The notes below the pieces were generated by a model. The model was not told where the DNA came from. It made no database searches and worked only from the letters and a program-made list of their open reading frames with translations. A DNA stretch of 64,000 nt from Eledone cirrhosa (lineage: Eukaryota), in assembly GCA_964016885.1 (NCBI GenBank), contig OZ024756.1:17918001-17982000 (forward strand), in the 5' to 3' direction. Positions within the stretch are counted from its first letter, which is position 1. Each line of letters opens with the position of its first letter. A program made the position numbers and the translations under genes. Positions 1,701 through 62,700 of the stretch are shown here, piece after piece.

Positions 1701-1749
1701 ATGAACTTTCCAACGGATATTTACCTATTTCTAACGATCTTGCTGACAA
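1701..1749 (+). CDS. Copy 1 exon 1, signal peptide [16 protein letters not shown]
   Basis: AAAATG start, hydrophobic core, phase-1 donor A|GTAAGT. Identical in copy 2. Confidence 0.8.
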
Positions 1750-9400: not shown

Positions 9401-11290
9401 GTATGGAAAACTCACTGAACCCACACAAGTATGGAAAACTCACTGAACCCACACAAGTATGGAAAACTCACTGAACCCACACAAGTATGGAAAACTCACT
9501 GAACCCATATAAGTATGGAAAACTCACTGAACCCACACAAGTATGGAAAACTCACTGAACCCATATAAGTATGGAAAACTCACTGAACCCACACAAGTAT
9601 GGAAAACTCACTGAACCCACACAAGTATGGAAAACTCACTGAACCCACACAAGTATGGAAAACTCACTGAACCCACACAAGTATGGAAAACTCACCGAAC
9701 CCATACAAGTATGGAAAACTCACTGAACCCACACAAGTATGGAAAACTCACTGAACCCACACAAGTATGGAAAACTCACTGAACCCACACAAGTATGGAA
9801 AACTCACTGAACCCACACAAGTATGGAAAACTCACTGAACCCACACAAGTATGGAAAACTCACTGAACCCACACAAGTATGGAAAACTCACTGAACCCAC
9901 ACAAGTATGGAAAACTCACTGAATCCATACAAGTATGGAAAACTCACTGAACCTATACAAGTATGGAAAACTCACTGAACCCACACAAGTATGGAAAACT
10001 CACTGAACCCACACAAGTATGGAAAACTCACTGAACCCACACAAGTATGGAAAACTCACTGAACCCACACAAGTATGGAAAACTCACTGAACCCACACAA
10101 GTATGGAAAACTCACTGAAACCACACAAGTATGGAAAACTCACTGAACCCATATAAGTATGGAAAACCCACCCAGCCAATGCAAGAATGAAAACCCACCG
10201 AACCAATGCAAGTACAGAAACCCACTTAACCCATGCAAGTATGGAAAAAATGGACTTTAATATAACTATGATAATCATGAAACACAAATGATTTAATTAA
10301 ATAAATATTGTGGGTGGGAGGGTGCTTGTCTGCATGATTAAAAATATGACTGTCAGAATACAACCCAAACAGGTTGAGATGAGTGCTGGGCTATCAGTGC
10401 CTGGGGAGTTCATGTTTGTTTCTTAGCTGGTCTTGTCTCCTTATATTTACAATCCAGCTGTTTTAAGTGACAAATTAAACGCAGCCACTATGTTTTTAGC
10501 ATTGTTATTAAAGTAACACAAGGCAGAGAGTATTTTTTTCTTTTTTGTGGGGGGAGGGTGAAAACTCTACACCCTTGGCTGAAGGGTGTCTTGCCCTCCA
10601 TATAAGTGTGTGTGTATATGTATCTATATATAATATGTGTGTATATATATCTATGTGTTTGTGTATATATATATATCATCATCACCGTTTTACGTCCGTT
10701 CTTCCACACTAGCATGGGTTAGACGGGTTATCCTGTTGTGGGCAGCGTCCAGTCGCCTGACCATGCCTTGCTCATACGGGAACTAATTTTGGCTTGATTT
10801 CTACAGCTGGATGCCCTTCCTAACACCAACCTCATTTACAGTGAGTGCTGGGTGCTTTTTTTCCGTGGCCCCTACACGTCCACTTTACAGTGTGGGCTGG
10901 GTGCTTTTTTTGCCGTGGCACCTCCACAGCCAGTGGAATGATAGGGACCCCAGTCCTATCATCTCATTTCTACAGCTGAATAAACTGGAGCAAATAAAGT
11001 GTCTTGCTCAAGGAAACAACATATCACCTGGTCTGAGAATTGAACTCACAACTTTTGATTGCAAGCCCAATGCTCTAACCACTAAGCCATGCACCTTCAG
11101 AAATATTTCTGAAGACGGCGGGTAGGGAAGACGTATGTATACTTTCTTACTTTGATAATTTGTAATATATTTTACATAGATCACTATTAGAATGAACATA
11201 CAGAGAACTACCCCCCAGAAACAATTGTAAAATAACGAGTTTACTATGAATTACCCGTATTTTGTTTAATTTCATTGTTTTCACTATTTG

Positions 11291-11449: not shown

Positions 11450-14400
11450 CCCATCCATCCATGTAACTGCCAATCTATATACATGATTATTTGTAAAAAA
11501 AGAAAAACCCCGCTCCCTGTCACATTTCTAGTGCGCCCTTGTATAAAGAAATTTATCTATTTCATCTGTATGAATTTATTCATCTATCTATCTATCTATT
11601 GGTTTATCTTTCTGTCTCATCCATCTATCTACCTATTGGTTTATCTTTCTGTCTCATCTATCTATCTATCTATTTGCCTGTCTATTTATTTATCTATCTA
11701 TCTATCACAGTCCTCTGGCAAGCGGGCGCAGCAATCAGTGGAGACTCCACTTCGACATTCTATAGAGGGATTGTATGTTACAAGGGCGACGGCGTGCTCG
11801 GAGAGACTCTGGGCGTCGAAGATGATGAGCTCACCAGTCTGTTTGGTAGGACTTTCCGCCCGGGACCTATGGACAACTTCCAGGAGCTCTACCGGTTTGT
11901 GACAAGATCTACAGGCACAGACGCCCCGGCAGGGATCCTTCCAAGAGGACGTGTCCAAGATGTGCGCAGGACATTGAAACAGTCCTGCACGCAATTGTAC
12001 ACTGCCCGGGTGTAACAGACCTGTGGAACTATGCAGAACAACTGCTGTCGCGTATGGGACAAATCCAGTTGACTCCCGAGTCCATAGTAAGGATCAAACC
12101 GCCAGCCTCTTTCAAAAACGAAAGAGAGGCGGTTTTCCTCTGTACGGTGGCTATGGTGAAAGAAGTTATATGGTGGACGAGGTTGAGAGGACTGAGGACA
12201 GATGCCTTTCTCTCCGGACAACAATTGATTCCCTTCTTTAAGTATCACTTTAGAAGGAGAATCAGAGTTGAGAGAGAGGCACTGCACCCCAGTAAATTTA
12301 CTGAATGGTGGGTGAATGAAGCGAAAATGGCCCGAGTGATTGGGCCTTCTCTGTTTATAAGCCTGTAGGTTGAAGAGGAGAGCAAAAGGAAGAAAGGAGC
12401 ACTTGCACAACAAACTTATGGTGGACGAGGTTAAAAGGACTGAGGGCAAACTCCTTTCTCTCCGGATGACTTATCCCCTTCTTTAAGTACCACTTCAGAA
12501 GGAAGATGAGAGTGGAGAGAGAGGTGCTACACCCCAGTAGATTCGCTGAAAGGTGGGGTGAATGTGGCGAAAATGCCCCAAGTGAATGGGTCTTCTCTAT
12601 ATATAAACCTGTAGGTTGTGGAAGACAAACAGGGAAGACGGGAACACCTACAAAACGTGTTTCTGGTGTTGAGGGTTGTTTTATCCACGGGGTGTAAAAC
12701 AACCCCGCAGTAACGTTCCCCCTTATTGGGGATTTCAATTGTTATTTTATTTTTATAGTTTATTGTTATTTATTAATGTTAAAGTTATATGAATTTTATG
12801 TAAAACCCCTGCCGTCACGTCTTGTAATGTCCCATTTTTGTACGCCCCTGTGGCAAATAAAGAAAGATATCTATTTATCTGTCTATCCATCTATCTATCT
12901 ATCTGTCTTTCCCTCTATCTTATTTATCTCCCCATCTATCCCTCTATTTATCTATCTGTTTATTTACCTGTCTATATATTTATCCATCTATCTATCTATT
13001 CCAGAAATGCCAACTGGGCAAAACGCTGCGACTTTCTCCATTTCCACTTCAGCCAAATTTGGTGATTCTGCCAAGTTTTTTTGCAATGCCTCTACTAGTA
13101 GCGAGCAGATAATAGCTTCCTTCCGACAGGATAAAATAGTTAAAGCTATAGCTACTGTGCGGGCTCCAGGAGTTACCGTTGGAGAAACTAGTCCAAACAC
13201 CACTGTGGCAGGTTCAGGAACAAACTTATACTATTCATACACCATTCATTCCTTGTCCTGCTCTAATCGAGGGAACTACTGGTGTGGAGTATCAACTGTC
13301 TCAGATGGAAATCCAAAAAGTAACATCCTCAAACTCAATGTACTTGGTAAATAATTTAACTTTACCTATCTATTTGTCTGTTTATCAGTCTCCCTATCTC
13401 TCTCTCTATCTATACATTGGTCTTTCTTTCTCTTTCTCTATCTATCCATCTGACTATATTTCTGTCTGTCTGTCTATCCATCCATCTATTTATCTCTCTG
13501 TCCATCTGTCTGTCTATCCATCTGTCTGTCAGTCTATCTATCTCTATTTATCTATGGACATCTTCCAGAGGTCCCTGGCCTGGCAGTGTTACTGAGGAGC
13601 TCTACCAGTTCATGACAAGATCTACAGGCATGGACGCCCTGGCAGAGATCCTTCCAAGAGGACATGTCCAAGATGCGGGCAGGACATTGAAACTGTCCTG
13701 CACACAATTGTACACTGCCCGGGCATAACCGACCTGTGGAACTATGCAGAACAACTGCTGTCGCGTATGGGACAAATCCAGTTGACTGCTGAGTCCATAG
13801 TAAGGATCAAACCGCCAACCTCTTTAAAAAATGAATGAGAGGCAGTTTTCCTCTGTATAGTGGCTATGGTGAAAGAGGTTATATGGTGGACGAGATTGAG
13901 AGGACTGAGGACAGATGCCTTTCTCTCTGGACAACAACTCATTCCCTTCTTTAGGTACCACTTTAGAAAGAGAATCAGAGTGGAGAGAGAGGCACTACAC
14001 CCCAGTAAATTTACTGAAAGGTGGGTGAATGTAGTAAAAATAGCCCGAGTGATTGGGCCTTCTCTGTATATAAACCTGTAGGTTGAAGAAGAAAGCAAAA
14101 GGAGGAAAGGAGCACTTGCACAACACGCTCCTGAAGTTGAGGGTTGTTCTATCGACGGGGTATTAAACAGCCCATTTGTGGCGCCTCCCCCCTATTGGGG
14201 ATTTTGATTGTTAAATTTGTGTTTCAATATTTTTACATGATTGTATGTAAAATCCCCGGCATGTGTCCTTGTTCTGTCCCCTTTTCTTGTGCGCCCTTGT
14301 GGCTAATAAAGAAATATATCTATCTCTATTTATCTGTCCATCAGTCTATCAGTCCATCTGTCTCTCCCTCCCTGTTTGTCTCTATCCATCTGTCTCTCTG

Positions 14401-17400
14401 TCTCTCTGTCTCTTCTGTTTATCTGTCTATTTGTCATCATCATCATCATCGTTATTCAAAATGTTTATTGGACAGACAGTTGTGACCCACAACATCTGTC
14501 CACATTCGTTAAAGGTAGGATGCTTTACAGATATTATTTGATTGATTTCATTGTTGAAGACTAAAATTTAAGAAATTGAGAGATAAAAAAATATGATCTA
14601 CAATGATAAATATTTTCTCAGGAAATTATTTACAATTTTTACATTTGTGACTGTAATTCTAATGAACTATATTGCATTTCCATTATTCAATGAAACATCC
14701 AAGAGTGGTGGATTGGCAGTATCGGTAGAGGGTTGGGCGCCATGCTTTCCAGCATAGTTACGTCCCTTTACGATCTGAGTTCAAATATCACCGAGGTTGA
14801 CTTTGCCTTTCATCCTTACGGAGTCGATAAAATAAAGTACCAGTAATGCACTGGGTAATTGCTGGCCTTGTGTCTAAAGTAGAAACAATTATTCAATGAA
14901 ACATTTTGAAGGATTTATTAAAATTATTAATTATTTCATTACTAAAATAGTTAATTAATGCATGATTCTTATATAAAATTATATTGGAATATTTTAATTT
15001 AAATAGGGACTCTTTAAAACATGTTTTGTTTCATAGAACCAGTGCCAGTTCTGGCTGGTTTGGTATCAAAAGGGTTAAATTGTACTTTTTACTAATGACT
15101 GCTGATCTACAGAACCACCCCTTTTAACTAGGGGTTCTCTCTGTTGGGCCTTGCTATTGTTGATCATTGTTGACTTCATTAACAATCTGTATTTGATGTC
15201 CCTTCTTTTCCATGTTTTTTTTTATGTACAGGTCCACCTGGGCGTCCAAATCTACAAGCTCCATCTGGTAATCTGATTCTAGGCGACACTGTCACTGTTT
15301 TTTGTGAAAGCAATGTAGGCAAACCAGCTAAGAATTTAGAACTCTGTATTGACAGTGATGGCATTGATTCCACAAACCCTATTTGTAGTAATGGAACTGA
15401 ACTAGTTGAAATAGAAAATAAATGCATTTTCACACAAAATGTAAGCCAGACATTTAGCGTGAGTGAAAAAACACGTCGTGCTACATGCAAGGTTGGATCA
15501 ACTACATTCAAATCAGAAAAATCCTGGAATGTATACTGTAAGTTTACCTTTATTATTCTTTAATATATGTATTATTTTATTCTTTACAGTTATTAGACTG
15601 TAGTCAAGCTGCGACATCAACTTTAAGGGACATTAGGCAATCATATCAAGTCTGGTATTTATTTTGTCCATCTCCTTTTTGTCAACATACTAAGTTATGG
15701 TTGATAAACGCACACGCACACACACACCACCACAACCACCACCATTACCATCATCACCATCATCATCACCATCATTTGACACCCATTGCCCTGCTAACAA
15801 GGGTTGGTGTTACTGCACACTTTGACAGTGTTTCATTGGTGTTACTGCACAGCTAGACAGACACAGATGCATTATTGTACACCTAGATAGACAGCCTGTA
15901 ATGTAACTTGCAGCATCCATGTCACATTTGTTCATTCTATTCTACAAGATGCACTGAATGCACTTTTTACATGCCACATATACTTGAGTTATTATGTATA
16001 TATGTGATCTGAATAGCTGCAGGCATGCCTGTGTGGTTAAGAAGTTTGCTTCACAGTCTTGTGGTTTTAGGTTCAATCTCATTGGTTTCAAATAGAATCA
16101 TCCTTCTGTATGCCTTGACCCTCTGTCAAATGTAGGATCTACATCATCATCATCATCATTATTCAAAATGTTTATTGGACAGACAGTTGTGTGACCCATA
16201 ACATCTGTCCACAGATATTATTTGATTGATTTCATTGTTGAAGACTAAAATTTAAGAAATTGAGAGATGAAAAAATATGATCTACAATGATAAATATTTC
16301 CTCAGGAAATTATTTACAATTTTTACATTTGTGACTGTAACTCTAATGAACTATATTGCATTTCCATTATTCAATGAAACATTTTGAAGAATTTATTAAA
16401 ATTATTAATTATTTCATTACTAAAATAGTAATTTAACGTATGCTTCTCATATAAAATTATGTTGGAATATTTTGATTTAAATAGGGACTCTTTGAAACAT
16501 GTTTTGTTTCATAGAACCAGAGCCATTTCTGGCCGTTTTGGTATCAAAAGGGTAAATATGTGCTTTTTGCTAATGACTGCTGATCTCTACTACAGAACCA
16601 CCCCTTTTAACTAAGGCTTCTCTCTGTTGGGCCTTGCTACTGTTGATCATTGTTGACTTCATTAATAATCTGTATTTGATGTCCCTTCTTTTCCATGTTT
16701 TTATTTTATGTACAGGTCCACCTGGGCGTCCAAATCTACAAGCTCCATCTGGTAATCTGATTCTAGGCGACACTGTCACTGCTTTTTGTGAAGGCAATGT
16801 AGGCAAACCAGCTAAGAAATTACATCTATGTATCGGAAATTCACAAAACAGTCAATGTGTTAATGGAAGCGAACCAGTTAAACAAACTGATGTATGCATG
16901 TTCACACAAAATGTAAGCCTGACAGTTAAGCTGACTAAAGCGACAATCCGTGCTACATGCAATGTTGGATCAAATAAATCAGAACAGACCTGGAATGTAT
17001 TCTGTAAGTTTATTTCTTTTATTCTTTAATCTTTTTATTACTTTATTCTTTAGTTATTAGACTACAGTCAGACTAGGGGATATACTTCAAGGAACATGAG
17101 GCAATCATATCAACTCCAGTACTTATTTTTTCAAGTCTGGTATATATTTTGTCCATCCCCTTTTTGTCAACATGTTAAGTTATGGGCTGTAAACACAGAT
17201 GCACACACACACATACATACACATACATCATCATCATTGCCTTCATTTAACATCCATTTTCTGTGCTAACAAGGGATGGATGGGTTGTCACAGGCGGAAT
17301 CAACTCTCAACAAGTGGAGTTACTGACCTCTCAGACAAGCCTGTATCTGACATATGTTACTGTGCTGTACTGAGTGTATTTTATCATAGTACCAGCACTA

Positions 17401-20400
17401 GGGATGTTGTCATGTCTAATGACACAGCTGAAGTATCCTTCTGGTCCTTTTTTTGGAAGGTTTTCTGCAACTGGATACCCATCTTTTCACCAGCACTAGG
17501 GAGGTTGTCATGTCCCTATGTTATGAGTATTTGACAAAATACATTCTGTTATTTGTACTTGCTTTCTGTTTAAGTTCAAATCTTGCTGTGGCCCACCTGG
17601 GTTGTTGACTTAATCTGGTACCTGGTTTAACAACATCACCTGGCCCTTCTTGGGTGCCTTTAGCAGAGTCCACTCTGTTGCAAGCATTCGAGCCAGGTTT
17701 CTGATTTCAGCAGATCATCTCCCATTCCTTCCAACATTCATAAAGACCCAGGAAAGTATTATGGATACTGGCCCCTTCTGTCCATTTCTAAACAATTAAC
17801 AAAAAGTAAAAATGAATGTTTCTTTCAGTTTGGGCAATCAAAGTCTCCCACATTTGGTTCATTGTCATCATCACCATCATCACTATGACCACCACCAGCT
17901 TCATCGCTGCCACCACCATCATCATCATTATCACCAGCACCACTGTCATCACCACCACCATCACCATTATCACCACCACCACCATCAACATCATCACCAC
18001 CACTATCATCATCATCATCATCACTCATCTATTTTCCATGGTTGCATGAGTTTGACTGGCTGTCATGTTATGTAGCTAGACAGGTCCAGTGACCATGTCT
18101 TGCTCATACAATCTGTTTTTGTCTTGGTTTTCTACAGTGGATGCTCTTCCTAATGTCAACCATCTTACAGGGTGGACTGGGTGCTTTTTGTCATAGCACC
18201 ACCATTACCACTTTACAGCATATACAGGGAGATTTCTTGTGGCACCACCACTACCACTTTACAGGGTGATCTGGGTGCTTTTTAATCTTTGCACTTGTAC
18301 AACCACCTTACAGGGTGGACCAAGTGCTTTTATTTTGGCACCTGTACAACCACTCTCCTGGAGAGAGAGGAGAGAAAGAGAGTGTATATGTTTCTCTAAT
18401 ACCACCACCACCACCACCTACTACATTCTCTATGATCTCCTATACATTTCAGATCCCGTTGACTCCATAATGTTATTTCCATCTGACGATACTTGGACAC
18501 TGAGCCGTGGCAGCAGTAAAACCTTCAAATGTGAGGCACTTGGCAACCCCCAACCCACATACAAGTGGCAATTTTTCCCAAAGTCGTCTCAAGACAACCG
18601 TATATACCAGGGTCAAAGTATCAATCTTCATTCTCAACAGAGTGGCCGCTATGTATGTACTGCCACCAACACAGTCAGAGGAGTCCAGTATAACATGACA
18701 AAAACATTGGTAGTTACTGTCGGTAAGTCAATTTCTATATCTTTTATATATTTCCTCCCTCTCCCGCTCCCTCCCTCTATTTTTCTCTATTATATAACTT
18801 TCCCAAGTAATTGATGACTTGGTCATGGTACCCATTGCTCCTACATGCATTCTGCACCACTGTGCACAATCTGCGGAAGTGACTATAACTGGACCATGAA
18901 AGCCAAGGTAGTGTTTTCTTGTTCTGTGTATGAATATAAATAATACACACACACACGCATATATAGTAATAATAATAAATGTGAAGACTAAAATCCAAAG
19001 AGGGCTCGATAAGGATAAAAGCAGCGATTCTTTGCTTAGACTTTAATCTGTTATTTTAATAAATATATATATATATATGTGTGGAGGTACATGGCTTAGT
19101 GGTTAAAGCATTAGGCTTGCAATCGGAAGGTTGTGAGTTCAATTCTCGGACCGGGTGATGTGTTGTTTCCTTGAGCAAGACACTTTATTTCACATTGCTC
19201 CAGTTTACTCAGCTGTAGAAATGAGATGATAGGACTGGGGTCCCTATCATTCCACTGCAAAGTGGTCATGGAGGTGCCACGGCAAAAAAGTACCCAGCCC
19301 ACACAAGTGGTACAAAAAAGTACCCATCCTTTTTATATATATATAAAAAGGATCTTTATAACATGTACAAAATTTGATGTTAGCAATCCTGCTTTCTCTG
19401 TTTTGGATCATCAGAACATTTGTTATTAGGTTAAATTGTTCTTTCATTAAAACTTTAGCATGAGGATTCACGACCACATTGGTTTTGATTATATATATGT
19501 ATATATATATATATATATATACATGCATAGATATCATCATCATCATCATCGATTAACGTCCATCTTCCACGTTAGCATGGGTTAGACGGGTCCTATTTTG
19601 TTGCGTGACCATGTCTCAGTCAAATAGGGGTGTTTCTAGCTGGTTTTCTATGGCTGGATGCCCTTCCTAATGCCAACCATATTTACAGTGTGGTCTGGTT
19701 GCTTTTTGCCATGTCTTTTATATATATATACTGGGCTGCTACTTATTTTATGAAAAGCAAAGTTGTCTCTAGCAGGATTTGAATGTAAAATGTGGTCAGC
19801 CGGAATAAATACAGCAAAGCATTCTAACTGACGCTCTAATAACTCTGCCAATTCAACACCATATATATATTATTTATTTATATTCATACACACAACAAAA
19901 AGTGCTACCTAAGGTTTCAAGGTCCATTTTTCCATGCTGGGTTAAACAAGTTGTCCTGTTGAGAGACAAGCGAAATCAGGTGACTGTGCCTTGCTCATAC
20001 AGAACTGATCTTGGCTTGGTTTCTATGATTGGATGCCCTTTCTAACACCATCCACATTTACAGTGTGGACTGGGTGCTTTTTGACGTGACACCTACATGA
20101 CCACTCTACAGTGTGGACTGGGATACTTGTGGGGGGTGTATGGAAGGAGGGAGGTACGGGAAATGTGGTGCCTACTAGATGTATACTTCAACCTATGTGC
20201 ATGGGAAGGTACATCTTCTGTAATATATATGTGTGTGTGTAAAAGGTAAACAGAAATAATAAAACAAACGGTACAGTATATGGAAGTAATATACTAGTTT
20301 AATGCTTGAAATAGCAGGAAGAGGCTCTTAACGTTTTGGACGCTAGTCCTTCATCAAAAGAAAGATTGAGGGGATGGTCAGGGCAGAATCGGAAAACATT

Positions 20401-22198
20401 TTATTAAAGAAATATAACAGATCCATTCATGTTGCCATTTCTTGGAAAACTTTTGATGCTGATATATATATATAAAAACAAAATTTGAATTTGAATGAAT
20501 TTTTGCTTTAACATAGCAGATACATGAATGAAAATATGGGTTATATTGAATAATGGTAATAATAATAACGATAATAATATTTAATTATTATCGTTTGGGA
20601 GCAAACAGCTTCACTTATGTTATGCTTTGATTTTGATGACTATCATCAGCCATTTTTTGAGAAACAGTCAGCATGTTTCTGGGTCATTTCCCTTCATCAG
20701 GACTGTATAGCTCTCTGCTTCTTGAGTGAACTGTTGAAGATGTATAGTATTTTCTAATGTATACATCAGCTGATCAGCCTCATTTGCATACTGAGCGATT
20801 TTACGGCTGGCCTTGCTGAAAAGTAAAAACAAAATTAGAATTTGAATCTTCACTTCTAGCACAGCTGATTACATAAATGTAAGTACGGGTTATATTGAGT
20901 AATAATAATATTATTCAAAGTCAATATTACTATTATTATTATTCAATATATGAGAAGGTGGAGGCAGTGGGAAACCAAATATAGTGTTATGAGACCATAT
21001 ATGGCATTATGAGAAGGTGGGGGAGGTGGTGTGGGACTATATATGGCCTTATTGTTATTTGTTAGTCATTTATTGGTTTTCAAGAACTTATAATTTGCTT
21101 TGATTGTAGTTGAAATGCCAACAGATCCATTGACAACAACCCAAAATCCAAGTGCCACTTCTCCATTTCAAAGAGCTACTGTTGCTCCAGCTACTTCAGG
21201 TAAAATATGTTTCCTCTTCTCCTCTCTCCTCTAGGCTAGTGGTATACAAACTCTGTGGCCTCTACTTACTGGTGTGCCTCAAAAGAACAAGATTTTATTT
21301 CAAAACTTGAAAAATACAAATAGATATTTAAAATAAAATTTACATATATATATGGGGTGTATCAAAGACTGAAATGCATGTAAAAATTGTAAGTAACTTT
21401 ATAAAATATCATAAATGTTATTAAAAAAGTATAAAACTTTATATTCAGTCATGTATTGTACAAGTTACTGCATGATTATATGGTCATTTGTTTAAAAGAT
21501 ATAGTCTTTTGAAATCAAATGATTCTTTTTGATACACCTTGTGTATATGTGTGTGTGTATATATATATATGTCAGGTCACCAGTTGGTGCTACTGGTAAC
21601 ATGTATTCCAGTACAACCTGTCCCATGGTCGGGTCGTTGGCGACTAAACTGGCAACCCCACCAAGGTTTCTTGGTGAGGTGGTTGACTTTGGACATCCTG
21701 CAGGACTAAAAACAAAACCTGTCAAAGGGCAAAGGAGCTCTTAAGAGTCAATGGCCATCCAAAATCACTGGGAGCGATGACCCCTTAGCCTTTGTCAAGG
21801 CAGAATTCTAGGAGAAGGAAAACTCTGATATAACACCTGCAACCCTAATGGTATCCATTGATGTTGACTTGTTTTTCTTTTTGGTAAATATGATCTTGGT
21901 TAAGAGAGTGGGACTGGCTTTGTGCAGTGCCTTTGTTCACTATAAAAGCTTCACGGCACAGGCATTGCTTTATATCTGGAGATCTCTCTGCACTTGTCGT
22001 CACATGGTACCATGGGCCCAGCACTATGTGTCAATAATTGTCACAAGTGTAGTGTTTGTACCAGAGTTTTCAAGTCGCTGGCTGGACTAAAAAGTCACAC
22101 TCGTTCAGCGCATTGGTAGGGGTTCTCCTACATGGATATAAAGTAGTGGTCGTACTCGAAAACGAGTTGGAAGCCACCATATATATATATATATATAC

Positions 22199-22229
<31 letters not shown>

Positions 22230-25200
22230 GTAATATATATATATATATACATATACACAGTTGTCCCCCGATATTTGAGGGGCCTACGTTCCTAGAGCAC
22301 CCACGAAGAGTGGTCCATAAAAAAGCCATTAAAAAATTGCGGAACATATTTACGATTCCACGAATATGAGGTGGTTTCCACGAACAATTATTAGTTAGGT
22401 TCTAAGGAAAATTCCGCAAATACTGAGGGTACAGTGTATATTTTATATATATATATACTCACACACACCTACATATACACCCTGTGTGTGTGTATATGTA
22501 TATATATATATATATAAATAGAGTCTGCGGTGCTGAGACCGAGGTGACCACTAATCATGTGAGTACTCAATACATGGGGAGATGTAGAGTGGGTATAGAG
22601 ATATGTAAAATCCCGGCCGCAGTGCCAAACAGATTTGGTTTGGGTGTACAGCAAGCCTTTTCAAGGGTGTAGTAATATTTGTAGGGTATGAAAAATAGCT
22701 CCCTCAGTAGAGCACGTTTTCCAACACTAATCCAACTACTCAGTGACCGCCTACCTATATATATATATATTACATATTATATTATTTATTTTACATATAC
22801 ATTGTTTTACGATCGTTTCGAGTTGATCATCTCAATATATTGACTATAGCGGTTAAGGAACTGTATACTATCAGACATAATATATGGATTTCATCATACC
22901 ATCTTCTTCGGAAACAATGATGTTAGAATCTTTATTGATAGTATATAAAAGGGTAGATATATGTATTGTTTCTACTTTTGGCACAAGGCCAGCAATTATC
23001 CCAGTGTATTACTGGTCCTTTCTTTTATGGACCCGGTAAGGATGAAAGGCAAAGTTAACCTCAACGGGACTTGAACTCAGATCATAAAGGGCCGTAGCCG
23101 TAACTCTTTGCTGCAAAACATGGCGTCAGACCCTCTACTGATACTGCCAATCCACCACCCATACATATATAGATATATATATTGCCAATAAAAAAAGGCA
23201 TTTAGAGATTGACTCAGCGAAATACGGGACCAATCACTTGTTCTCACAGTCATTATATATATGTGAGTATCATCATCATCGTTTAACGTCCATCTTCCAC
23301 ACTAGCATGGGTTGGACGGTTTTGTGTATGAGTGTGTGTATATATATATATATAATTGCAGCTATATATATATATATATAATTTATATATCATTACAAGG
23401 GCAAAGGAGACGCCCTGGATAGAGGAAACTATAGGGGCATTAAATTAGTTGATCAGGTCATGAAAGTCACAGAAAGAGTTATTACTCAACTGATTTGGTT
23501 TTGTGCCAGGTAAAAGTACCTCGGATGCTCTTTTCCTTGTACAGAAATTACAGGAGAAGTACCTAGCTAACAGTAAACCCCTCTACTTAGCTTTTGTTGA
23601 CCTGAAGGTTAGAATTAACAATGAATATAGTAGGGATTCACCAAGGCTCCGTCCTTAGCCCCCTCCTGTTTATTATTATCCTAAAGGCTATAACAGAAGG
23701 GTTTAAGACTGGCTGCCCATTGTATGTTGTTGGTGGTGGTGAGCAATTTATTGTGTTTTTTTTAATCTATTTTCCTATTTTTCTTTTATCAGACAAACAA
23801 AAGATTATCCTGGGAACTATTATCCCATTAATCATCATCATCATCATTGTGATTATATGTTTCATATTGTACAAAAGAAGAGCTAAACCTACGGAAATTG
23901 AAGGTCAGTTGAAGCAGTAATATCTCCTTATATATATAACCAGCAATTTCTCTGTCTGTCTGTCCGACAGTGGAAACACGTGCGTAGAGAGAGAGTGAGA
24001 GTGAAAGAAAGAGACAGACTACGAGAGGGGGATAGCGGGAGGGGGAGAGGGGGAGAGAGAGTAAATAGACGCTAAAACACGTGCTATAGAATCATTACCT
24101 TCCCCTCTTTACTGACTTTGGTCACTGAGGCCGAGGGAATCGCTGGTTGCTATAGAGACACCTTGTACAAGCCAGAAGTAACCAGTTCGATGCGGTTCTG
24201 ACTTGACACCATTTGAAGAATGGTTGCCATTGAATTTGTGGTTGTTGCTGCTGATAATAAGGACCATTTGAAGAAGGTTGCTGCTGATGAGGTCATTTAT
24301 TAATCAGATTGCGCAGTTCCATAACCTACGTTTGATTTGTTCAATTTTTTTCTTCAATTTTTTTTGTTTTTTTTTATTTCTTATTGAAAAAATATAAATA
24401 ATAAAATAAGGTTAGAAATTTAAATACAATTAAATACGATTTAATTTCCATTTCCAGCAGCCAATGTCCAGTGTTCAATTTCATGAAAAAATTGGAAATA
24501 ATTCAAAAAATTGAAGTTTAACTTTTGAACATTTGTTTTAACAATAAAAAAATATTTCCTTATTCACACCTAATGGTATGATTAAAATTTCATAGGAATA
24601 TTTTTTTCTAACCGCCAGTTATTTAAATATTATTAAAAATAAATTTTTTTTTTAAAAGAATGGAAGATTTTGTGGATTTTTTTTACCACCTTCCAAGACT
24701 TAAACACTAATTCTCGCAAATTTGTGTTTTGTAATGACCCTCAGGACGCTGCTATTGTTGATTCCAATAGTGCCTGGAATTCGAATATGTTAGTATACAA
24801 TTTTTTGAATAAAATTAAGGCGCAATTAGAGCTGCCAAACAAGATTTTTTTCGGCTTCGGCCCATATTATATATATATATAATGGGGATGATGATGATGA
24901 TATACAGAGTTACATATGTATATGTAATCTCCTTATAATATATAACCAGCAATTTCTCTGTCTGTCTGTCCGACAGTGGAAACACGTGCGTGCGTGCGAA
25001 TGTTTTTTGCGTACGCGTAGAGAGAGAGTGAGAGTGAAAGAAAGAGACAGACTACGAGAGGGGGATAGCGGGAGGGAGAGAGAGAGAGAGAGTGAATAGA
25101 CGCTAAAACACGTGCGCGCGTGCGAATGTTTTTTGCGCACGCGTCGATAGAGAGTGAGAGTGAAAGAAAGAGACAGACTACAAGAGGGGGATAGCGGGCG

Positions 25201-28200
25201 GGAGAGGGGGGAATTGAGGAGTGCTACAGAAACATATATACATTTCTGTGTGTGTGTAATATATATATATATATACATTTCTGTGTGTGTAATATATATA
25301 TATACTAGCAGAAAACCACCCACCGGGTGGTTTTCTGCTAGTCTATATATATAAAACTGAGGATGTCTGTCTGTGTGTGAGTGAGTTTGAATCCCTAAAA
25401 CTTGAGAACCACCACCGAACCGACTGTTTTCAATTTCTCTGTTTTCATTTCTCTGTTTGTCTGTCTGTCTGTCCTTCCCTAAAACTCAAATGTAGGTGCC
25501 ACAGAAATATTACCTTCCCCTTCCTTTCTCCACTTTGGTACTACCAAGAGAAACACTGTCGCTACAGAAACATTACCTTCCCCTCTCCACAGACTTTGGT
25601 CACTGAGGCCGAGGGAATCGCTGGTTGCTATAGAGACACCTTGCACAAGCCAGAAGTAACCAGTTCGAGGCGGTTCTGACTTGACACCATGCCAAGGACC
25701 ATTTGAAGATATATTTCCATCGTTATATCATAACGTTTATGTATCATAACGTTTATATTTCTGTCACTAATCTCTTTTTCTCCTTTTTCGTTTTAACATA
25801 TATTTATTTCAAAGATTTCACCGTATAGATAACATATATATTTATACATGCATAAAAGACACACCGAGAGACGGTGAACATGTGGTGCCGAAAACATTTC
25901 TCATCCAAATCTCAACAATATCAGTATATACACTAGATTTGCTAGCAGAAAACCGCCCACCAGGTGGTTTTCTGCTAGTCTATATATATAAAACTGAGGA
26001 TGTCTTTCTGTGTGTGTGTGAGTTCGAATCCCTAAAACTTGAGAACCACCACCGAACTGACTGTTTTCAAACTTTACACATGTAATACCTATGTTTCAGG
26101 GAGTGTTCTGAGCAAAAAAAATTTCAAATTTTGAATGCCCTAGGGACTGTATCAGGCGATTTAGCGATCTCACTCTATAATTCTTAGTCTTTCTCTTTTA
26201 TAGATAGATACATACATATAACGTCGCGCCCTTATAATATCTGTCTGTATGTCTGGCTGTCTGCATTACGTCACTTCCCTGAGGATGTCTGAGTGTGTGT
26301 GTGTGTGTGGATGGGTGTCTGGATGTGACACAACTATAGGACATGATCAGTGTTGTATTCCAGAGTCACAGACTGTTTCTGGTCCTACAACATAGTCACA
26401 CTCATCCAGAGATCACAACCACAGGAAATATCATTAATGTTGTATTCTGGTGTCACTGAGTGCGTGTGTGTGTATGGGTATCTTGGTGTGAGTATGTGTC
26501 TATATAGATGTCTGGGTGTGAATATGTCTATATGGATGAGTGTGTGTGTGTGTCTGGCTGCGAATATGTGTCTGTGAGTGTGTGTGTGCCTGTCTGTGAG
26601 TGTAAGTGGATGGGTGTTCGACTATGCGTCTGGGTGTGTGTGGTATTTTCTAAATATGTACCCCTCTATTCTCCACCCCACCCATCCTATAAACCAATTC
26701 CATTCATAAACTCTGTCTCACTCTCTTTCAGAACCTCCAGAAAAACCACGGAAGTAAGTTACTGTTTTGTTTTATTTTGTGGTTGATATGGTGGCGGTGG
26801 TTGGGGCGGTGGTGGTGGTGGTGGCGGAGATAGTTGATATGGTGGTGGTGTGGCGGTAGTGGTGGAGATGGTTGATGTGGTGGTGGTGGTGGTGGCAGAG
26901 ATGGTTGATGTGGTGGTGGTGGTGGTGGTGGCGAAGATGGTTGATGTGGTGGTGGTGGTGGTTGATATGGTGGTAGTGGTGGTGGTGGTGGTGGCGGTGG
27001 TGATGATGGTTGATATGGTGGCTGTGGTGGAGATGGTTGATATGGTGGTGGTGGCGAAGATGGTTGATGTGGTGGTGGTGGCGGCGAAGATGGTTGATGT
27101 GGTGGTGGTGGCGGAGATGGTTCATGTGGTGGCGGAGATGGTTGATGTGGTGGCGTGTATAGTAATATTGGTGGTATAGCACTGGTGGTGGTTGATATGG
27201 TGTGGTGGTGGTAGTGGTGGTGGTGATGATGGTTGATATGGTGGTGGCGTGGTGGTGATGATGGTTGATATGGTGGGGTGGTGGTGGTGGTGGTTGATAT
27301 GGTGGCGTGGAGGTGGTGGTGATGATGGTTGATATGGTGGCGTGGTGGTGGTGGTGATGATGGTTGATATGGTGGTGGTGGTGGTGGTGGTGGTCATCAT
27401 GGTAGTGGTGGTGGTGGTGGTGGTGGTGGTTAACATAGTGTATAGCAGTGGTTGTGGTAATGGTGATGGTGGTAGAGCCATGGTGCTGGTAATGGTGAGG
27501 TGTATAGTAGTGGTGGTGGTGTATAGTAGTATTGGTGATGGTTGTGGTATAGCAGTGGTGGTGGTGGTAGGGTTGAGGGTGATATAGCCGTGGTGGGGTG
27601 TATAGTAGTATTGGAGATGGTAGTGGTATAGCAGTGGTGGTTGTGGTGGTGGTGGTGGTGGTAGGGTTGAGGGTGGTATAGGTGAGGTGTATAGTAGTAT
27701 TGGTGATGGTAGTGGTATAGCAGTGGTGGTTGTGGTGGTGGTGGTGGTGGTAGGGTTGAGGGTGGTATAGGTGAGGTGTATAGTAGTATTGGTGATGGTA
27801 GTGGTATAGCAGTGGTGGTTGTGGTGGTGGTGGTGGTGGTAGGGTTGAGGGTGGTATAGGTGAGGTGTATAGTAGTATTGGTGATGGTAGTGGTATAGCA
27901 GTGGTGGTTGTGGTGGTGGTGGTGGTGGTAGGGTTGAGGGTGGTATAGCCGTGGTGGGGTGTATAGTAGTATTGGTGGTGGTATAACAGTGGTTGTGGTA
28001 TAGTTGTGATGATGGTGATGTAGTACTGGAGACATTGGTGTGGGGCTGTCATAGTAGTAGTGGTGATGGTGTGGTATAGTAATTGCGGTAGTGGTGATGG
28101 TGGCGGTGAGAGGTTTGTAAGGATAGAGTGTATCTGTTCTAAAAACAGACATATACACAAATATAAACTATAAATTGGTATTTTGGTTTTCTTTAGCAAT

Positions 28201-29444
28201 CACTCAGATGTCAATATGATGAATACAAAACCAGACCTTGTCCATTCCACAGGGATTGAGAAGAAAGTACCTATGTATAATAATGTAAGTCTACTTTACT
28301 TATCTTATTTGAACCATACATACACATACTTTGTAGGGTTCGGCTTTTGGACAGACTTTGATTCCTGATGGTATCTTTAGAGTGGGACAAGAGGGGTTTT
28401 CATGGAGCTGGGAGCCATGACAATAAATATATCCTCCACAGATTAAACACAATAATATGTATGGAGGCTCATGGCTTAGGGGTTAGAGCATTGGCCTTGC
28501 AATCGAAAGGTTGTGAGTTCAATTCTCAGACCGGGTGATATGTTGTTTCCTTGAGCGAGAAACTTTATTTCACATTGCTCCAGTTTACTCAGCTGTGGAA
28601 ATGAGATGATAGGGACTGGGGTCCCTATCATTCCACTGCAAAGTGGTCGTGGAGGTGCCACAGCAAAAAAGCACCCAGCACCCACTGTAAATGATGTTGG
28701 TGTTAGGAAGGGCATCCAGCTGTAGAAATCAAGCCAGAATCAGTTCCCATCCCACCCTTGCACGCGGGGAAAAGCGGACGTAAAATGATGATGATGATGA
28801 TGAGTACTCATGGAAATTTGGTCTCTTTTATTATTGAATATGTTGTAATGCCTGGTAGTGTGATGTAATGTCTGGTAATATCTGATAGTGTGTTGTAATA
28901 TCTGGTAGTGTGATGTAATGTCTGGTAATATCTGATAGTTTGTTGTAATGTCTGGTAATATCTGATAATGTGTTGTAATGTCTGGTAGTGTGATGTAATG
29001 CCTGGTAATGTGTTGTAATGTCTGGTAGTGTGATGTAATGTCTGGCAATGTGTTGTAATGTCTGGTAATGTGTTGTAATGTCTGATAATGTCAGGTAATT
29101 TGTTGTTATGTCTGATAATATCTGGTAGTCTATTGTAATGCAGTGTGTTGTAATGTCTGGTAGTGTGTGGTAATGTCTGGTAATGTGGTGTTATGTCTGG
29201 TAGTGTGTTTTAATGCCTGGTAATGTGTGATAGTCTATTGTAATGTCTGTTTTGCTTTTATACTCTCCTCCCACAGCTGTTACGTCAATTAAAGAATTTT
29301 ATTTGGTTTTCCTCTTTTTAGGCGTTTGACCTTGGAGGTGAAGAAGAATTAAACTACATTGATGACAAACCTCGCAGCCGCAAACCAGTAATGCCTCTCC
29401 ATGGTTCTGTATCCTCTTATGACACAACATTACCTTGTGTCTAG
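1701..29444 (+). CDS. Type I transmembrane IgSF receptor, copy 1 (SP-IgV-IgC2[3a or 3b]-IgI/C2-stalk-TM-cytoplasmic tail); 466 aa with 3a, 460 aa with 3b
   Basis: Manually assembled exons: 1701-1749, 13005-13346, 15232-15537 (3a), 16716-17003 (3b), 18453-18722, 21110-21199, 23793-23903, 26732-26753, 28197-28284, 29322-29444. All introns are GT-AG. Phases are 1 throughout the ectodomain/TM, then 2 and 0, giving one open frame from ATG to TAG. No transcript evidence. Confidence 0.85.
2505..3185. repeat. Degenerate tandem repeat of about 80 bp
   Basis: Recurring ACAGATAGTATCAGTAATGGAAAGACCAATGGAATCATAGTTT. Confidence 0.8.
3780..4410 (-). mobile_element. RTE-clade LINE fragment (RT C-terminal region)
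   Basis: Motifs [37 protein letters not shown] and LYGHIKR..GKRSRGR. Absent from copy 2. Confidence 0.8.
4476..4970. repeat. About 45-bp minisatellite (also 3570-3695 and 46155-46435)
   Basis: Unit ACACCTGGCCTATATCTATTACCTTCTTTAGGGACCAAATTTGTT. Confidence 0.9.
4990..5640 (+). mobile_element. RTE 3' fragment with SINE-type tail (equivalent at 46455-47065)
   Basis: [17 protein letters not shown], followed by the tail CCATGCTAGCATGGAA..(GAT)n. Confidence 0.75.
5663..6170 (-). mobile_element. Probable Helitron 3' end fragment (also at about 47121-47620)
   Basis: The minus strand ends ACCCGTGCAACGCCAGGATACACTGCTAGT (hairpin plus CTAG) next to (TA)n. Inner boundary uncertain. Confidence 0.5.
6475..7430 (-). 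mobile_element. Penelope-like retroelement fragment
   Basis: [16 protein letters not shown] and [31 protein letters not shown], typical of the PLE N-terminus and RT. Frameshifted. Confidence 0.78.
7465..7655 (-). mobile_element. Same SINE family (also 22965-23160 and 49330-49520 on the minus strand)
   Basis: Reverse complement of the 14699-14887 element. Confidence 0.8.
9255..10168. repeat. 28-bp minisatellite, about 33 copies (about 10 copies at 52335-52605)
   Basis: Unit CTCACTGAACCCACACAAGTATGGAAAA. Confidence 0.95.
11705..12870 (+). mobile_element. Two joined 5'-truncated Tx1-like LINE fragments
   Basis: Homologous to 60690-61613. Junction near 12410. Ends in AATAAAGAAA plus TCTA repeats. 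Confidence 0.88.
13005..13346 (+). CDS. Copy 1 exon 2, V-like Ig domain
   Basis: CCAG acceptor and G|GTAAAT donor, phase 1-1. Motifs GDSAKFFC ... [15 protein letters not shown] ... KLNVL. Confidence 0.9.
13552..14312 (+). mobile_element. 5'-truncated Tx1-like LINE (equivalent copy at 62292-63055)
   Basis: Homologous to the ORF2 3' end and 3' UTR. Flanked by TCTA/TCTG repeats. Confidence 0.88.
14699..14887 (+). mobile_element. tRNA-derived SINE (Meta-core-like) with 17-bp TSD
   Basis: A box TGGCAGTATCGG, B box GAGTTCAAAT, core GCCTTTCATCC..GTCGATAAAATAAAGTACC. TSD ATTATTCAATGAAACAT at 14682-14698 and 14888-14904. Confidence 0.88.
15232..15537 (+). CDS. Copy 1 exon 3a, C2-like Ig domain (variant a)
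   Basis: TACAG acceptor and T|GTAAGT donor, 306 nt open. Sequence [34 protein letters not shown]. Missed by the ORF track. Confidence 0.85.
16142..17230 (+). repeat. Internal duplication of about 14436-15770, carrying exon 3 and its flanking intron
   Basis: Both units begin (CAT)n-TTATTCAAAATGTTTATTGGACAGACAG. Upstream intron sequence is highly similar; downstream intron sequence is more diverged. Confidence 0.9.
16716..17003 (+). CDS. Copy 1 exon 3b, C2-like Ig domain (variant b)
   Basis: TACAG acceptor and T|GTAAGT donor, 288 nt open. Paralogous to 3a with the same 5 Cys. Confidence 0.85.
17862..18022. repeat. (CAC/CAT)n microsatellite
   Basis: Seen directly. Confidence 0.9.
18453..18722 (+). 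CDS. Copy 1 exon 4, I/C2-set Ig domain
   Basis: TTTCAG acceptor and G|GTAAGT donor. Motifs [17 protein letters not shown] ... [10 protein letters not shown]. Confidence 0.92.
21110..21199 (+). CDS. Copy 1 exon 5, Ser/Thr/Pro-rich stalk
   Basis: TGTAG acceptor and CAG|GTAAAA donor, 90 nt, phase 1-1. Sequence [30 protein letters not shown]. Confidence 0.78.
22256..22440. mobile_element. Tc1/mariner-pogo-like MITE (related sequence at 41728-42020)
   Basis: Imperfect TIRs CAGTTGTCCCCCGATATTTG / CAAATACTGAGGGTACAGTG within TA repeats. Confidence 0.55.
23395..23720 (+). mobile_element. RTE RT fragment just upstream of the TM exon
   Basis: [33 protein letters not shown]. Confidence 0.75.
23793..23903 (+). 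CDS. Copy 1 exon 6, transmembrane helix
   Basis: Polypyrimidine-CAG acceptor and AAG|GTCAGT donor. [23 protein letters not shown] is followed by the stop-transfer KRRAK. Confidence 0.88.
23922..26260 (+). mobile_element. Nested Helitron-like non-autonomous repeats
   Basis: Repeated TC..TATATATAA starts (23922, 24928, 25342, 25979), CTAG-flanked hairpins (25305-25342, 25941-25979) and duplicated internal blocks. Confidence 0.5.
26732..26753 (+). CDS. Copy 1 exon 7, 22-nt cytoplasmic micro-exon (EPPEKPR)
   Basis: CTCTCTTTCAG acceptor and AA|GTAAGT donor. It is needed to convert phase 1 to the phase 2 of the next exon. Confidence 0.7.
26775..28110. repeat. (GGT)n-based complex micro/minisatellite
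   Basis: GGT/GAT runs with higher-order units. Confidence 0.92.
28197..28284 (+). CDS. Copy 1 exon 8, cytoplasmic
   Basis: TTTTCTTTAG acceptor and AAT|GTAAGT donor. Sequence [30 protein letters not shown]. Confidence 0.75.
28463..28803 (+). mobile_element. CORE-type tRNA-SINE
   Basis: Near-identical to 32293-32622. Confidence 0.8.
28840..29250. repeat. 10/20-bp minisatellite
   Basis: TGTGTTGTAATGTCTGGTAA units. Confidence 0.88.
29322..29444 (+). CDS. Copy 1 exon 9, terminal coding exon
   Basis: CCTCTTTTTAG acceptor, phase 0. Sequence [40 protein letters not shown]. Confidence 0.75.
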
Positions 29445-45636: not shown

Positions 45637-45685
45637 ATGAACTTTCCAACGGATATTTACCTATTTCTAACGATCTTGCTGACAA
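45637..45685 (+). CDS. Copy 2 exon 1, signal peptide
   Basis: Identical to 1701-1749, including the GTAAGT donor. Confidence 0.8.
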
Positions 45686-59700: not shown

Positions 59701-62700
59701 TGGATCAGTCTAAGGCTTTCGATAGGGTTGACCATCATTACCTGGATGCGGTGCTCGAGGCGGCAGGCTTCGGACCCGTGTTCAGGGGCTGGATTGCTGC
59801 AATGCACAACAGCAACATCTGCTCAAGGGTCAAGGTGAACGGCTACCTATCGGAGCCGTTCCATATTACGCGATCCTTCGACAGGGATGCCCTCTCTCCT
59901 CCCTTCTGTACGTACTGACTCTCGAGCCACTACTGCGGAAGCTGGAGCTATTGCAGGGCATCCCTCTGGAACCGGGACTGCGGAAAGCGACGTCGGCCTA
60001 CGCCGACAACGTGACAGTAATGGTGTCGAGCGCCTCGCAAATCGAGGAAGTTGGCACCTTACTGAAGGAATACGAAAGTTTCACAGGAACGAAGCTGAAC
60101 CGGGACAAGTCCATCGGTTTGCAACTCGGATCGTGGAGAGGCAAACTGATGCCTTCCGATGGCGTCGTCGGACGCTGGACGGAAGGACCGGTAAAGCTGC
60201 TTGGGGTCTGGTTTGGTCCGGACCTCCAGGTGGAGAAGAACTGGAACGAAGTGACGGCCAAGGTGTTTGCACTCACCCAGAAGTGGGCCGAGTGCAAACT
60301 ATCCTTGAAAGGTCGAGCGGAGGTGGCGAACACTTTTATAGCGTCCGCCATCTACTACTGCTTGACCGTTGTGCCTTGTCCAGCCAAAACGCTCGCCAAA
60401 ATGGAGCGCGCGCTCTTCCAATTCCTTTGGAAGAGGCGGGCTCCTTTGGTGAGAAGATCCATCTGCTGCCAACACCCTTCTAACGGAGGGCTGGGGATGC
60501 CGTGGTTGACGATGCGCAAACACGCACTCAGGCTGCGGCATCTCTACGTATTCCTCACCGGACAACCGGTGTGGGCCCCGTTCGTGAGGCGAGCCTTCCC
60601 ACGACTCGTCTCACTGACCGAGCTGCAGTCCTGGGTCAAGCAAAGACCGAGGAAAATGGGCGACTGGCACATCGAATGTGCTCAGGCGCTCACAGCCCTC
60701 TGGCAGGCGGACCCGGCGATCAGTGGAGACTCCACTTCGTCATTCTACAGAGGGTTGATCCACAGCAAGTGTGACGACGCGCTCGGTGAAACTCTAGGCG
60801 TGGAGGAAGATGAACTGGCCAGTCTGTTCGGTAGGACCTTCCGCCCGGGACCGATGGACAACTTCCAAAAGTCCCTGGCCTGGCAGTGCTACCGAGCAGC
60901 TCTACCAGTTCGAGACAAGCTCTACAGACATGGGCGCCCGGGCAGGGACCCTGCAAAAAAGATCTGTCCGAGGTGCGTGCGAGACGAAGAAACCGTCGCG
61001 CACGCATTCATACAGTGCCCGGGCGTCACTGACCTGTGGGGCTATGTAGAATGACTATTGTCGCGAGTGGGACCAATCCGGTTGACCACCGAGTCCATTG
61101 TCATGATCAAACCGCCACCCTCCTTCAAAAACGAAGGAGAGGCGATTTTCCTTTGTGTGATAGCTATGGCGAAAGAGGTTGTATGGTGGACAAGGTTGAA
61201 AGGGCTGAGGTCAGACACCTTTCTCTCCGGCCAACAACTGATTCTTTTTTTCAAATACCACTTTGGAAGAAGAATCAGGATGGTGAGAGAGGTGCTGTAC
61301 CCCAGCAAGTTTTATAAAAGGTGGGTGAAAGTTGCGAGAATGGCCCGAGTGAATGGGCCTTCTCTCTATATCAGCCTGTAGGTTGAGGAGGAGGAGAGGA
61401 AAGGAGTACAAACTCTTTGTACTCCTGGAGATGAGGGTTGCACATTTTTTCGGGGGTATGTGTTACCCATATAAACTGTCTCCCCCTATAGGGGAAAATC
61501 GACTAACTTTTTAAATTGCATTTGTGATAACATTTTACACGTTTTTTATTGTATGTAAACTTCCCCCTTTGTATTTGTCCCCTTCTTTTGTGCCCCTGTG
61601 GCTAATAAAGAAACTTATCTATCTATCTGTCTTTCCCTCTATCTTATTTATCTCTCCATCTATCCCTCTATTTATCTATCTGTTTATTTACCTGTCTATA
61701 TATTTATCCATCTATCTATCTATTACAGAAATGCCAACTGGGAAAAGCGCTGTGACTCTCTCCATTTCCACTTCAGCCAAAGTTGGTGATTCTGCCAAGT
61801 TTTTTTGCAATGCCTCAACTAATAGCAATCAGATATTAGCTACCTTCATGCAGGATAAAATAGATAAAGGTATAGCTACTGTGCGGGCTCCAAATGGTTC
61901 CGTTGGAGAAACTAGTCCAAACACCACTGTGGCAGGTTCAGGAACAAACTTATACTATTCATACACCATTCATTCCTTGTCCTGCTCTAATCGAGGGAAC
62001 TACTGGTGTGGAGTATCAACTGTCTCAGATGGAAATCCACGAAGTAACATCCGCAAACTCAATGTACTTGGTAAATAATTTAACTTTACCTATCTATTTG
62101 TCTGTCTATAAGTCTCCCTATCTCTCTCTCTATCTATTCATTGGTCTGTCTTTCTCTCTCTCTATCTATACATCTGTCTGTCTATCCATCTGTCTATATT
62201 TCTGTCTGTCTGTCTATCCATCCATCTATTTATCTCTCTGTCCATCTGTCTGTCTATCCATCTGTCTGTCAGTCTATCTATCTCTATTTATCTATGGACA
62301 ACTTCCAGAGGTCCCTGGCCTGTCAGTGTTACTGAGGAGCTCTACCATTTCATGACAAGATCTACAGGCATGGATGCCCTGGCAGAGATCCTTCCAAGAG
62401 GACATGTCCAAGATGCGGGCAGGACATTGAAATTGTCCTGCACACAATTGTACACTGCCCGGGCGTAACAGACCTGTGGAACTATGCAGAACAACTGCTG
62501 TCACATATGGGACAAATCCAGTTGACTGCCGAGTCCATAGTAAGGATCAAACTGCCAACCTCTTTCAAAAATGAATGAGAGGTGGTTTTCCTCTGTATAG
62601 GGGCTATGGTGAAAGAGGTTATATGGTGGACGAGATTGAGAGGACTGAGGACAGATGCCTTTCTCTCTGGACAGCAACTCATTCCCTTCTTTAGGTACCA

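Follow-up and report, generated by a model that had tools for sequence, protein, structure and literature searches.

The locus described here raises the question of how two neighboring, homologous immunoglobulin (Ig) exons, designated 3a and 3b, are used in a single gene of Eledone cirrhosa: either one or the other in each mRNA, in the manner of Dscam, as was proposed in a first-pass annotation, or both of them in series. The gene was reconstructed from a stretch of 64,000 nucleotides (hereafter, the window), and the search was extended to the remainder of the genome and to related proteins. The reading that we favor, at roughly even confidence, is that 3a and 3b are predominantly spliced in series, such that the main product would be a four-Ig protein of 562 amino acids (V-3a-3b-I).

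The two-exon anatomy itself is real. Exon 3a (positions 15232-15537, 306 nt) and exon 3b (16716-17003, 288 nt) are separated by an intron of 1178 nt; both are open and in phase 1-1. Their acceptors, an AG behind the same pyrimidine tract, are near-identical to each other, and both donors are GTAAGT (U2 type, with the full intronic consensus), whereas the exonic donor bases, ACT in 3a and TCT in 3b, deviate from the consensus. The coordinates, phases and linkers are as the first-pass annotation had them, and the recomputed split codons agree: exon 2 forms Gly with either exon (linker LNVLGPPG), either exon forms Tyr with exon 4 (linker VYYP or VFYP), 3a joined to 3b forms Cys, and exon 2 joined to exon 4 forms Asp. 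Its description of both exons as open with strong splice sites (AG acceptors behind a pyrimidine tract, GTAAGT donors), and of their 18-nt length difference as in frame (306 and 288 nt are both multiples of 3), holds equally. The exons are 80% identical in DNA and 67% in protein and differ by indels of 12 and 6 nt, both in frame; neighboring homologous exons of similar length and the same phase are what is looked for in clusters of mutually exclusive exons (MXEs).

Each of the two exons encodes a C2-type Ig domain, with a weak match to Pfam Ig_2, and the nearest named Atlas matches of 3a are CD80-like C2-set clusters. Modeled singly, both are predicted to fold as a beta-sandwich (pLDDT 79.8 for 3a and 89.2 for 3b). 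A fold search with the 3a model returned generic Ig matches only; among solved structures, FCRL5 and CEA were the top sequence matches and Necl-4 a fold match. Two candidate interpretations were dropped: a Toxin_TOLIP identity for 3b (Pfam E 0.09, below the cut-off), because the predicted fold is an Ig sandwich, and an assembly artefact as the source of the pair, because the exons are 20% diverged and both copies of the gene carry them.

With related proteins as guides, ten exons were recovered, which together encode a predicted type I membrane receptor of the order signal-V-C2-C2-I-stalk-transmembrane (TM)-tail. The exon models of this gene (copy 1) are predictions from sequence and are as follows:

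1701..1749, + strand: exon 1, ATG and signal peptide (hydrophobic, GTAAGT donor, phase 1, present in both gene copies)
13005..13346, + strand: exon 2, V-type Ig with an extra EF-loop Cys at the kappa-80 position (Pfam ig/V-set; 3 Cys)
15232..15537, + strand: exon 3a, C2-type (CD80-like) Ig (5 Cys, including a DE-loop Cys at the kappa-170/171 position)
16716..17003, + strand: exon 3b, second C2-type Ig exon (5 Cys)
18453..18722, + strand: exon 4, I-set Ig (Pfam Ig_3 E 1.7e-10; I-set above cut-off)
21110..21199, + strand: exon 5, Ser/Thr/Pro-rich stalk (open, phase 1-1; relatives have their stalk here)
23793..23903, + strand: exon 6, transmembrane helix and stop-transfer segment
26732..26753, + strand: exon 7, cytoplasmic 22-nt micro-exon (peptide conserved to Solemya)
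28197..28284, + strand: exon 8, cytoplasmic
29322..29444, + strand: exon 9, final coding exon with the stop

Exon 1 resembles the N-termini of two relatives (P0004 and P0024). The predicted products comprise 466 amino acids if 3a alone is included and 460 if 3b alone is; inclusion of both gives 562, and omission of both 364. Dscam proteins contain about ten Ig and six FN3 domains; this layout is absent from the host gene, in which four exons for Ig domains are followed by exons for a stalk and a TM segment.

The relatives were collected by profile searches. A profile of four exon-3 sequences matched 22 proteins, five of which are family members; of the 17 others, two were inspected and proved to be generic Ig repeats. 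Seven proteins were matched by a profile of three family members; querying longer proteins by word index with 3b or exon 4 gave no matches. The family thus assembled includes O. vulgaris CAI9737182/3/4/7/8, the O. sinensis LOC115221682 products (XP_029647746.1 and XP_036366538.1), O. bimaculoides XP_014771957.1, Argonauta hians GAB1610102.1, the bivalve Solemya KAL5020254.1 and an unnamed 490-residue protein from assembled runs. Like the window gene, the LOC115221682 group shows the signal-V-C2-I-stalk-TM-tail order, shared tail blocks and the extra V and C2 cysteines; the cytoplasmic tails of its octopod members are near-identical to that of the window gene, and O. vulgaris likewise possesses tandem gene copies. 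Unlike the window gene with its two C2 exons, the group has one C2 per unit, and identity in the Ig domains is about 45-55%. Two consecutive C2 domains were found in none of the 12 inspected relatives having a V and C2 region, in gene models that each give one path and in which an alternative exon could stay hidden. In O. sinensis, the signal-peptide exon is the sole difference between isoforms X1 and X2. The family is uncharacterised, its database names (CEACAM5-like, CADM2-like, FGFRL1) being automatic, and a search of titles and abstract openings, with few subscription journals among those covered, found no paper on the receptor family or its splicing.

The O. bimaculoides protein XP_014771957.1 (P0025) contains two copies of the neighboring I-set exon (the third Ig domain) in series, possibly an independent internal exon duplication within the same family; the model, which is N-terminally partial, may combine two gene copies. 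The tails also vary in a tyrosine motif. The consensus of the inhibitory ITIM motif is [ILVS]xYxx[ILV]; by eye, it fits in the unnamed relative P0026 and is altered in O. sinensis and Argonauta, and exon 9 of the window, where the aligned stretch is shortened, holds no fit. This suggests that the inhibitory motif was lost in octopods.

The origin of the exon pair can be traced in the surrounding introns, where pairwise alignment delimits two units, both lying between CAT repeat runs:

14435..15810, + strand: duplication unit a, intron-exon 3a-intron (pairwise alignment and self-BLAST; flanked by CAT microsatellite runs)
16142..17290, + strand: duplication unit b, intron-exon 3b-intron (pairwise alignment)

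Unit a includes a repeat insertion of about 200 nt, near 14682-14887, which is missing from the second gene copy. Since the majority of differences distinguish a from b alike in the two gene copies, the exon duplication is older than the gene duplication. Divergence between the units is uneven: the upstream intron differs at 23 of 342 sites and the downstream intron at 25 of 126 (p 1e-4), and the exons at 2 of 99 within their first third as against 49 of 189 over the remainder. At two sites, moreover, a and b are the same within a gene copy yet differ between the copies. On these two grounds, the upstream intron and the 5' third of the exons, including the acceptor, appear to have been homogenised by gene conversion. 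Relatives from Octopus to the bivalve have a single C2, and we therefore regard the duplication of the C2 exon as lineage-specific and the three-Ig form as ancestral. The notion that each exon is built as domain 2 is upheld insofar as both derive from the one exon that encoded domain 2 in an ancestor with three Ig domains; it carries little further, as any duplicate of that domain would look so.

Both exons look used and diversifying. Between 3a and 3b, pN is 0.198 and pS 0.129, with no significant difference in the 3' part (p 0.42). In neutral simulations at 10-12.5% divergence, the open frame, the five cysteines and the donor GT all survived in only 8-14%; given this and the in-frame indels, the pair is unlikely to include a decaying relic. 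Derived changes fall on both branches (9 on 3a and 10 on 3b, with 15 assigned to neither), and the frames are intact in two gene copies, in line with the functional appearance ascribed to both exons earlier. In the exon-3 tree few forks were resolved, and it contributed nothing to the order of events. Exon 3b retains the ancestral V-facing DE-loop residues no worse than 3a, and the split of derived changes gives no sign of a release of 3b from the V interface. That a single exon is in use, the other being a silent or rare relic kept similar by gene conversion under relaxed selection, is in our estimation very improbable. Neutrality would also predict a pN that is not below pS and a non-significant 3' difference, and exon 8 of the second gene copy does contain a frameshift; against this stand the rarity with which frame, cysteines and donor survive in the simulations, the in-frame indels, exons intact in both copies and changes on both branches.

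Several devices are known that prevent neighboring exons from being joined. According to the available text of PMC5740500, an MXE cluster is defined by junction reads that bridge each exon, with none joining the exons to one another; 1,399 of 6,541 human candidates were validated. In the human clusters, splice-type incompatibility accounts for 0.79%, steric block for 9% and breakage of the frame for 60%, many clusters being left to proteins or RNA structure, and 87% of the structure-mapped human MXEs end within a secondary-structure element (PMC5740500). Exons 3a and 3b, as whole domains predicted to fold separately, are unlike most of the latter. Nor was any of the three devices found here: joint inclusion of 306 and 288 nt, both multiples of 3, causes no frameshift; the GTAAGT donors are U2 type, with no U2/U12 mismatch; and no steric block (donor to branch point below 50 nt) is present in the 1178-nt intron. 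Branch-like motifs lie 39-140 nt upstream of the acceptors, more than 1 kb from the 3a donor, with AG-free zones of 96-98 nt. The first-pass annotation was thus correct in judging the 3a-3b intron too long for steric exclusion.

Competing RNA pairing is the remaining device for which traces in the sequence could be sought. A duplicated intronic stem arm that yields competing selectors has been proposed as a route to MXEs (PMC6071210, PMC9013439, as far as their available text goes). In a first scan, two of nine region pairs beat all 20 shuffles, which is not significant after nine tests, and a search of both gene copies for inverted repeats found only short arms at 70-94%. The site 18040-18065 pairs with both 15595-15616 and 17059-17082 (-22.2 and -20.4 kcal/mol); the latter two are paralogous elements about 60 nt behind the 3a and 3b donors. 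They are identical in the second gene copy, a conservation that is uninformative because intron identity is 97%. In paralog-aware comparisons, shuffled sequences did as well as downstream docking in 11 of 53 cases and as well as the best upstream model in 7 of 34; for a single helix the count was 44 of 133, and for two nested helices 17 of 133. Docking/selector complementarity, which would have supplied the mechanism for exclusivity, is accordingly at chance level by these counts (11/53, 7/34 and 17/133), and 18040-18065 is a candidate shared docking site only.

The cysteines bear on the same question from the side of the protein. There are three in V, five each in 3a and 3b and two in exon 4, giving totals of 10 for V-3a-I and V-3b-I, 16 for V-3a-3b-I (including the junction Cys) and 5 when both are skipped. 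The extra cysteines of the V EF loop and the C2 DE loop (C102 and C187) are invariant in all eight aligned relatives, among them Solemya, which keeps this pair without the other extra pair; they are found in exons 2, 3a and 3b of both gene copies. The best solved structures for the exon-3 profile include rabbit kappa chains, in which the extra C-kappa Cys aligns with the DE Cys, and alignment of the O. sinensis V-C2 region with the kappa chain 9yka_G places the V Cys at residue 80 and the split-codon residue at 108. In rabbit K1 light chains of types b4, b5 and b6, a Cys80-Cys171 bond links the two domains, whereas in b9 it is Cys108, the first residue past V, that pairs with Cys171 (available text of PMC12458230 and PMC5382564), a bond which in the latter source is only "thought to" form.

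By analogy with these chains, we infer that the V EF-loop Cys of the family is bonded to the C2 DE-loop Cys, and that in a four-Ig product the Cys at the 3a-3b junction lies where it could pair with the DE-loop Cys of 3b. Thus, were 3a and 3b both included, their joining would by itself generate the Cys that rescues the orphan thiol of 3b, mirroring rabbit b9. The likeness consists of extra cysteines at aligned positions in V and in the next domain; the differences are that rabbit kappa has an unrelated function and is presumably convergent, that the receptor bonds are predicted from alignment alone, and that Cys108 of b9 follows the V domain whereas the 108-type Cys of the four-Ig form follows a C2. 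The odd junction Cys (WNVYCPPG) had been taken as a sign of exclusivity. The Cys codon at the 3a-3b junction is indeed real; as an argument it is neutral at best, because the ancestral exon ends (T...GT) yield a Cys automatically and because its kappa-108 position makes it a candidate partner of the 3b DE-loop Cys.

Taken together, these observations point to the following course of events, in which we place about as much trust as doubt. A tandem duplication of about 1.2 kb, which the sequence shows, copied the second-Ig (C2-type) exon in a three-Ig membrane receptor found across molluscs. By default, the spliceosome would join 3a to 3b, as the near-identical acceptors, consensus donors and ordinary 1178-nt intron imply. 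In the resulting protein, the V EF-loop Cys would bond to the 3a DE-loop Cys (as Cys80-Cys171 in rabbit kappa) and the 3a-3b split-codon Cys to the 3b DE-loop Cys (as Cys108-Cys171 in b9), so that no thiol would be left free. The 5' third of the exons would have been homogenised while the rest diverged by amino-acid change, as expected for a recognition or adhesion receptor, and minor single-exon isoforms may arise through skipping. Inclusion in series is favored by the lack of a frame, U12 or steric device, by exons that each code for a complete domain predicted to fold by itself, by pairing at chance level, by an even number of cysteines (16, although the 10 of the three-Ig forms are likewise even) and by XP_014771957.1, in which two I-set copies are strung in series. 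Against it are the single-C2 state of all 12 relatives, the V-facing residues that 3b keeps as 3a does, the two of nine pairs that beat the shuffles in the first scan, and the pairing of 18040-18065 behind both exons; exclusivity regulated by proteins leaves no trace in sequence, and this too must therefore be counted against the four-Ig reading.

The same features can be accommodated by other modes of splicing. If 3a and 3b were independent cassettes, V-3a-3b-I, V-3a-I and V-3b-I would all be made in substantial amounts, so that the receptors would come in two lengths and with two versions of domain 2, an arrangement that we consider unlikely. Every join is in frame and the three forms are Cys-balanced; the three-Ig products (466 and 460 residues) match the O. 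sinensis orthologue of 465-466 residues; the near-identical acceptors could compete for the exon 2 donor; and the exonic bases at the donors (ACT, TCT) depart from the consensus. Skipping of both exons would be disfavored under such a scheme, as it orphans the V cysteine. Against independent cassettes, the full-consensus GTAAGT donors and long pyrimidine tracts favor inclusion of each exon. Strict mutual exclusivity, with 3a or 3b in each mRNA selected by splicing factors or weak competing RNA pairing, also seems unlikely to us. It would preserve the ancestral layout with exactly one C2, and both exons retain the DE Cys, the predicted partner of V, and have diverged in amino acids; the candidate docking site at 18040-18065 would suit the proposed route by stem-arm duplication (PMC6071210, available text), and Dscam Ig7 is a precedent for exclusive use of a whole domain (PMC3236188, available text). 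Yet no steric, U12 or frame device exists, the pairing does not exceed that of shuffles, and the junction Cys has a plausible partner; furthermore, Dscam arrays are described in the available text of PMC3236188 as free from gene conversion among paralogous exons, whereas the 5' third is apparently homogenised here. The Dscam-like exclusivity originally proposed for 3a and 3b is thus not supported, no enforcing device having been found in the sequence.

The gene is itself duplicated, and the second copy, 48.7 kb away and lying in the range of about 44-49 kb downstream, carries both 3a and 3b. Three of its exons begin within the window:

45637..45685, + strand: copy 2, exon 1
61729..62070, + strand: copy 2, exon 2 (V domain)
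63783..64000, + strand: copy 2, exon 3a (extends 88 nt beyond the window end)

Exon 3b and exons 4-9 of copy 2 lie past the window end; the 3b counterpart, which the first-pass annotation had expected to be sought there, is present just beyond it, at G000:C17:17983257-17983544, with 97% DNA identity. Genome searches gave at least four exon-3 and at least two exon-2 matches, every one at the receptor locus, and no gene copies beyond copies 1 and 2, these counts being lower bounds. The tandem segmental duplication spans window positions 1633-44000 and 45569 onward, at 92-98% identity and with differing transposon insertions; the copies may be paralogues or two haplotypes assembled in tandem.

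Over five exons, copies 1 and 2 differ by 41 nonsynonymous and 3 synonymous changes (p 0.009), of which the V exon (13005-13346 versus 61729-62070) accounts for 21 and 3, respectively. The V exon exceeds the divergence of the introns (82 in 4384) by far (p 1e-7) and 3b marginally (p 0.04), whereas 3a and exon 4 do not exceed the intron level. This pattern suggests that diversifying selection acts on the receptor, chiefly on V as a ligand-binding domain. In exon 8 of copy 2 (G000:C17 about 17993545-17993627, past the window), a net deletion of 5 nt places a stop codon a few bases short of the final exon junction, the last exon itself being intact. Copy 2, which would lack the peptide of the last tail exon, is possibly a signaling-dead or decoy partner of copy 1.

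CEACAM, FCRL, nectin/Necl and CD276 resemble the receptor in that V is followed by C2 or I domains on phase 1-1 exons, a likeness that amounts to generic Ig similarity. In vertebrate IgSF proteins, repeats of this kind are as a rule spliced in series and occasionally skipped, and internal duplication of phase 1-1 Ig exons is common. The four-Ig reading, the likely one, is therefore an ordinary one, and the gene likely behaves as an IgSF receptor that internal domain duplication has lengthened or varied. The arthropod Dscam1 arrays (exons 4, 6 and 9/11) likewise consist of tandemly duplicated Ig exons in a cell-surface receptor, and the Ig7 array encodes a whole domain (PMC3236188, available text), as do 3a and 3b. 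Dscam1 has dozens of such exons, in contrast to the two of the receptor gene, which encodes 3-4 Ig domains and no FN3, in which the docking/selector signal is at chance and gene conversion has apparently occurred, and for which exclusivity is doubtful.

The significance of the locus does not depend on the mode of splicing alone. It represents an uncharacterised, mollusc-wide family, which in the octopods is duplicated in tandem and alters almost exclusively through amino-acid substitution; the 41:3 ratio of nonsynonymous to synonymous differences between the gene copies points to a candidate receptor of immune or self/non-self recognition, a kind poorly known in these animals. If the exons are in fact exclusive, the young two-exon, two-copy locus would be a clean case of MXE origin, and the two gene copies would yield four ectodomain variants. 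That a cephalopod recognition receptor has independently evolved Dscam-like either/or splicing, through weak competing RNA pairing born of the duplication, is a prospect that we rate as rather improbable.

The two gene copies also differ in repetitive sequence. A 28-bp minisatellite in intron 1 (9246-10248 versus 52311-52685) shows an approximately threefold length difference. In addition, intron 1 of copy 2 contains a LINE-like retrotransposon (about 55450-61400; family label assigned by eye), whose gag-like, endonuclease and reverse-transcriptase-like ORFs are broken into several frames, and 3' fragments of the same LINE-like family occur at about 11700-12900, 13550-14340, 54150-55000 and 62290-63080.
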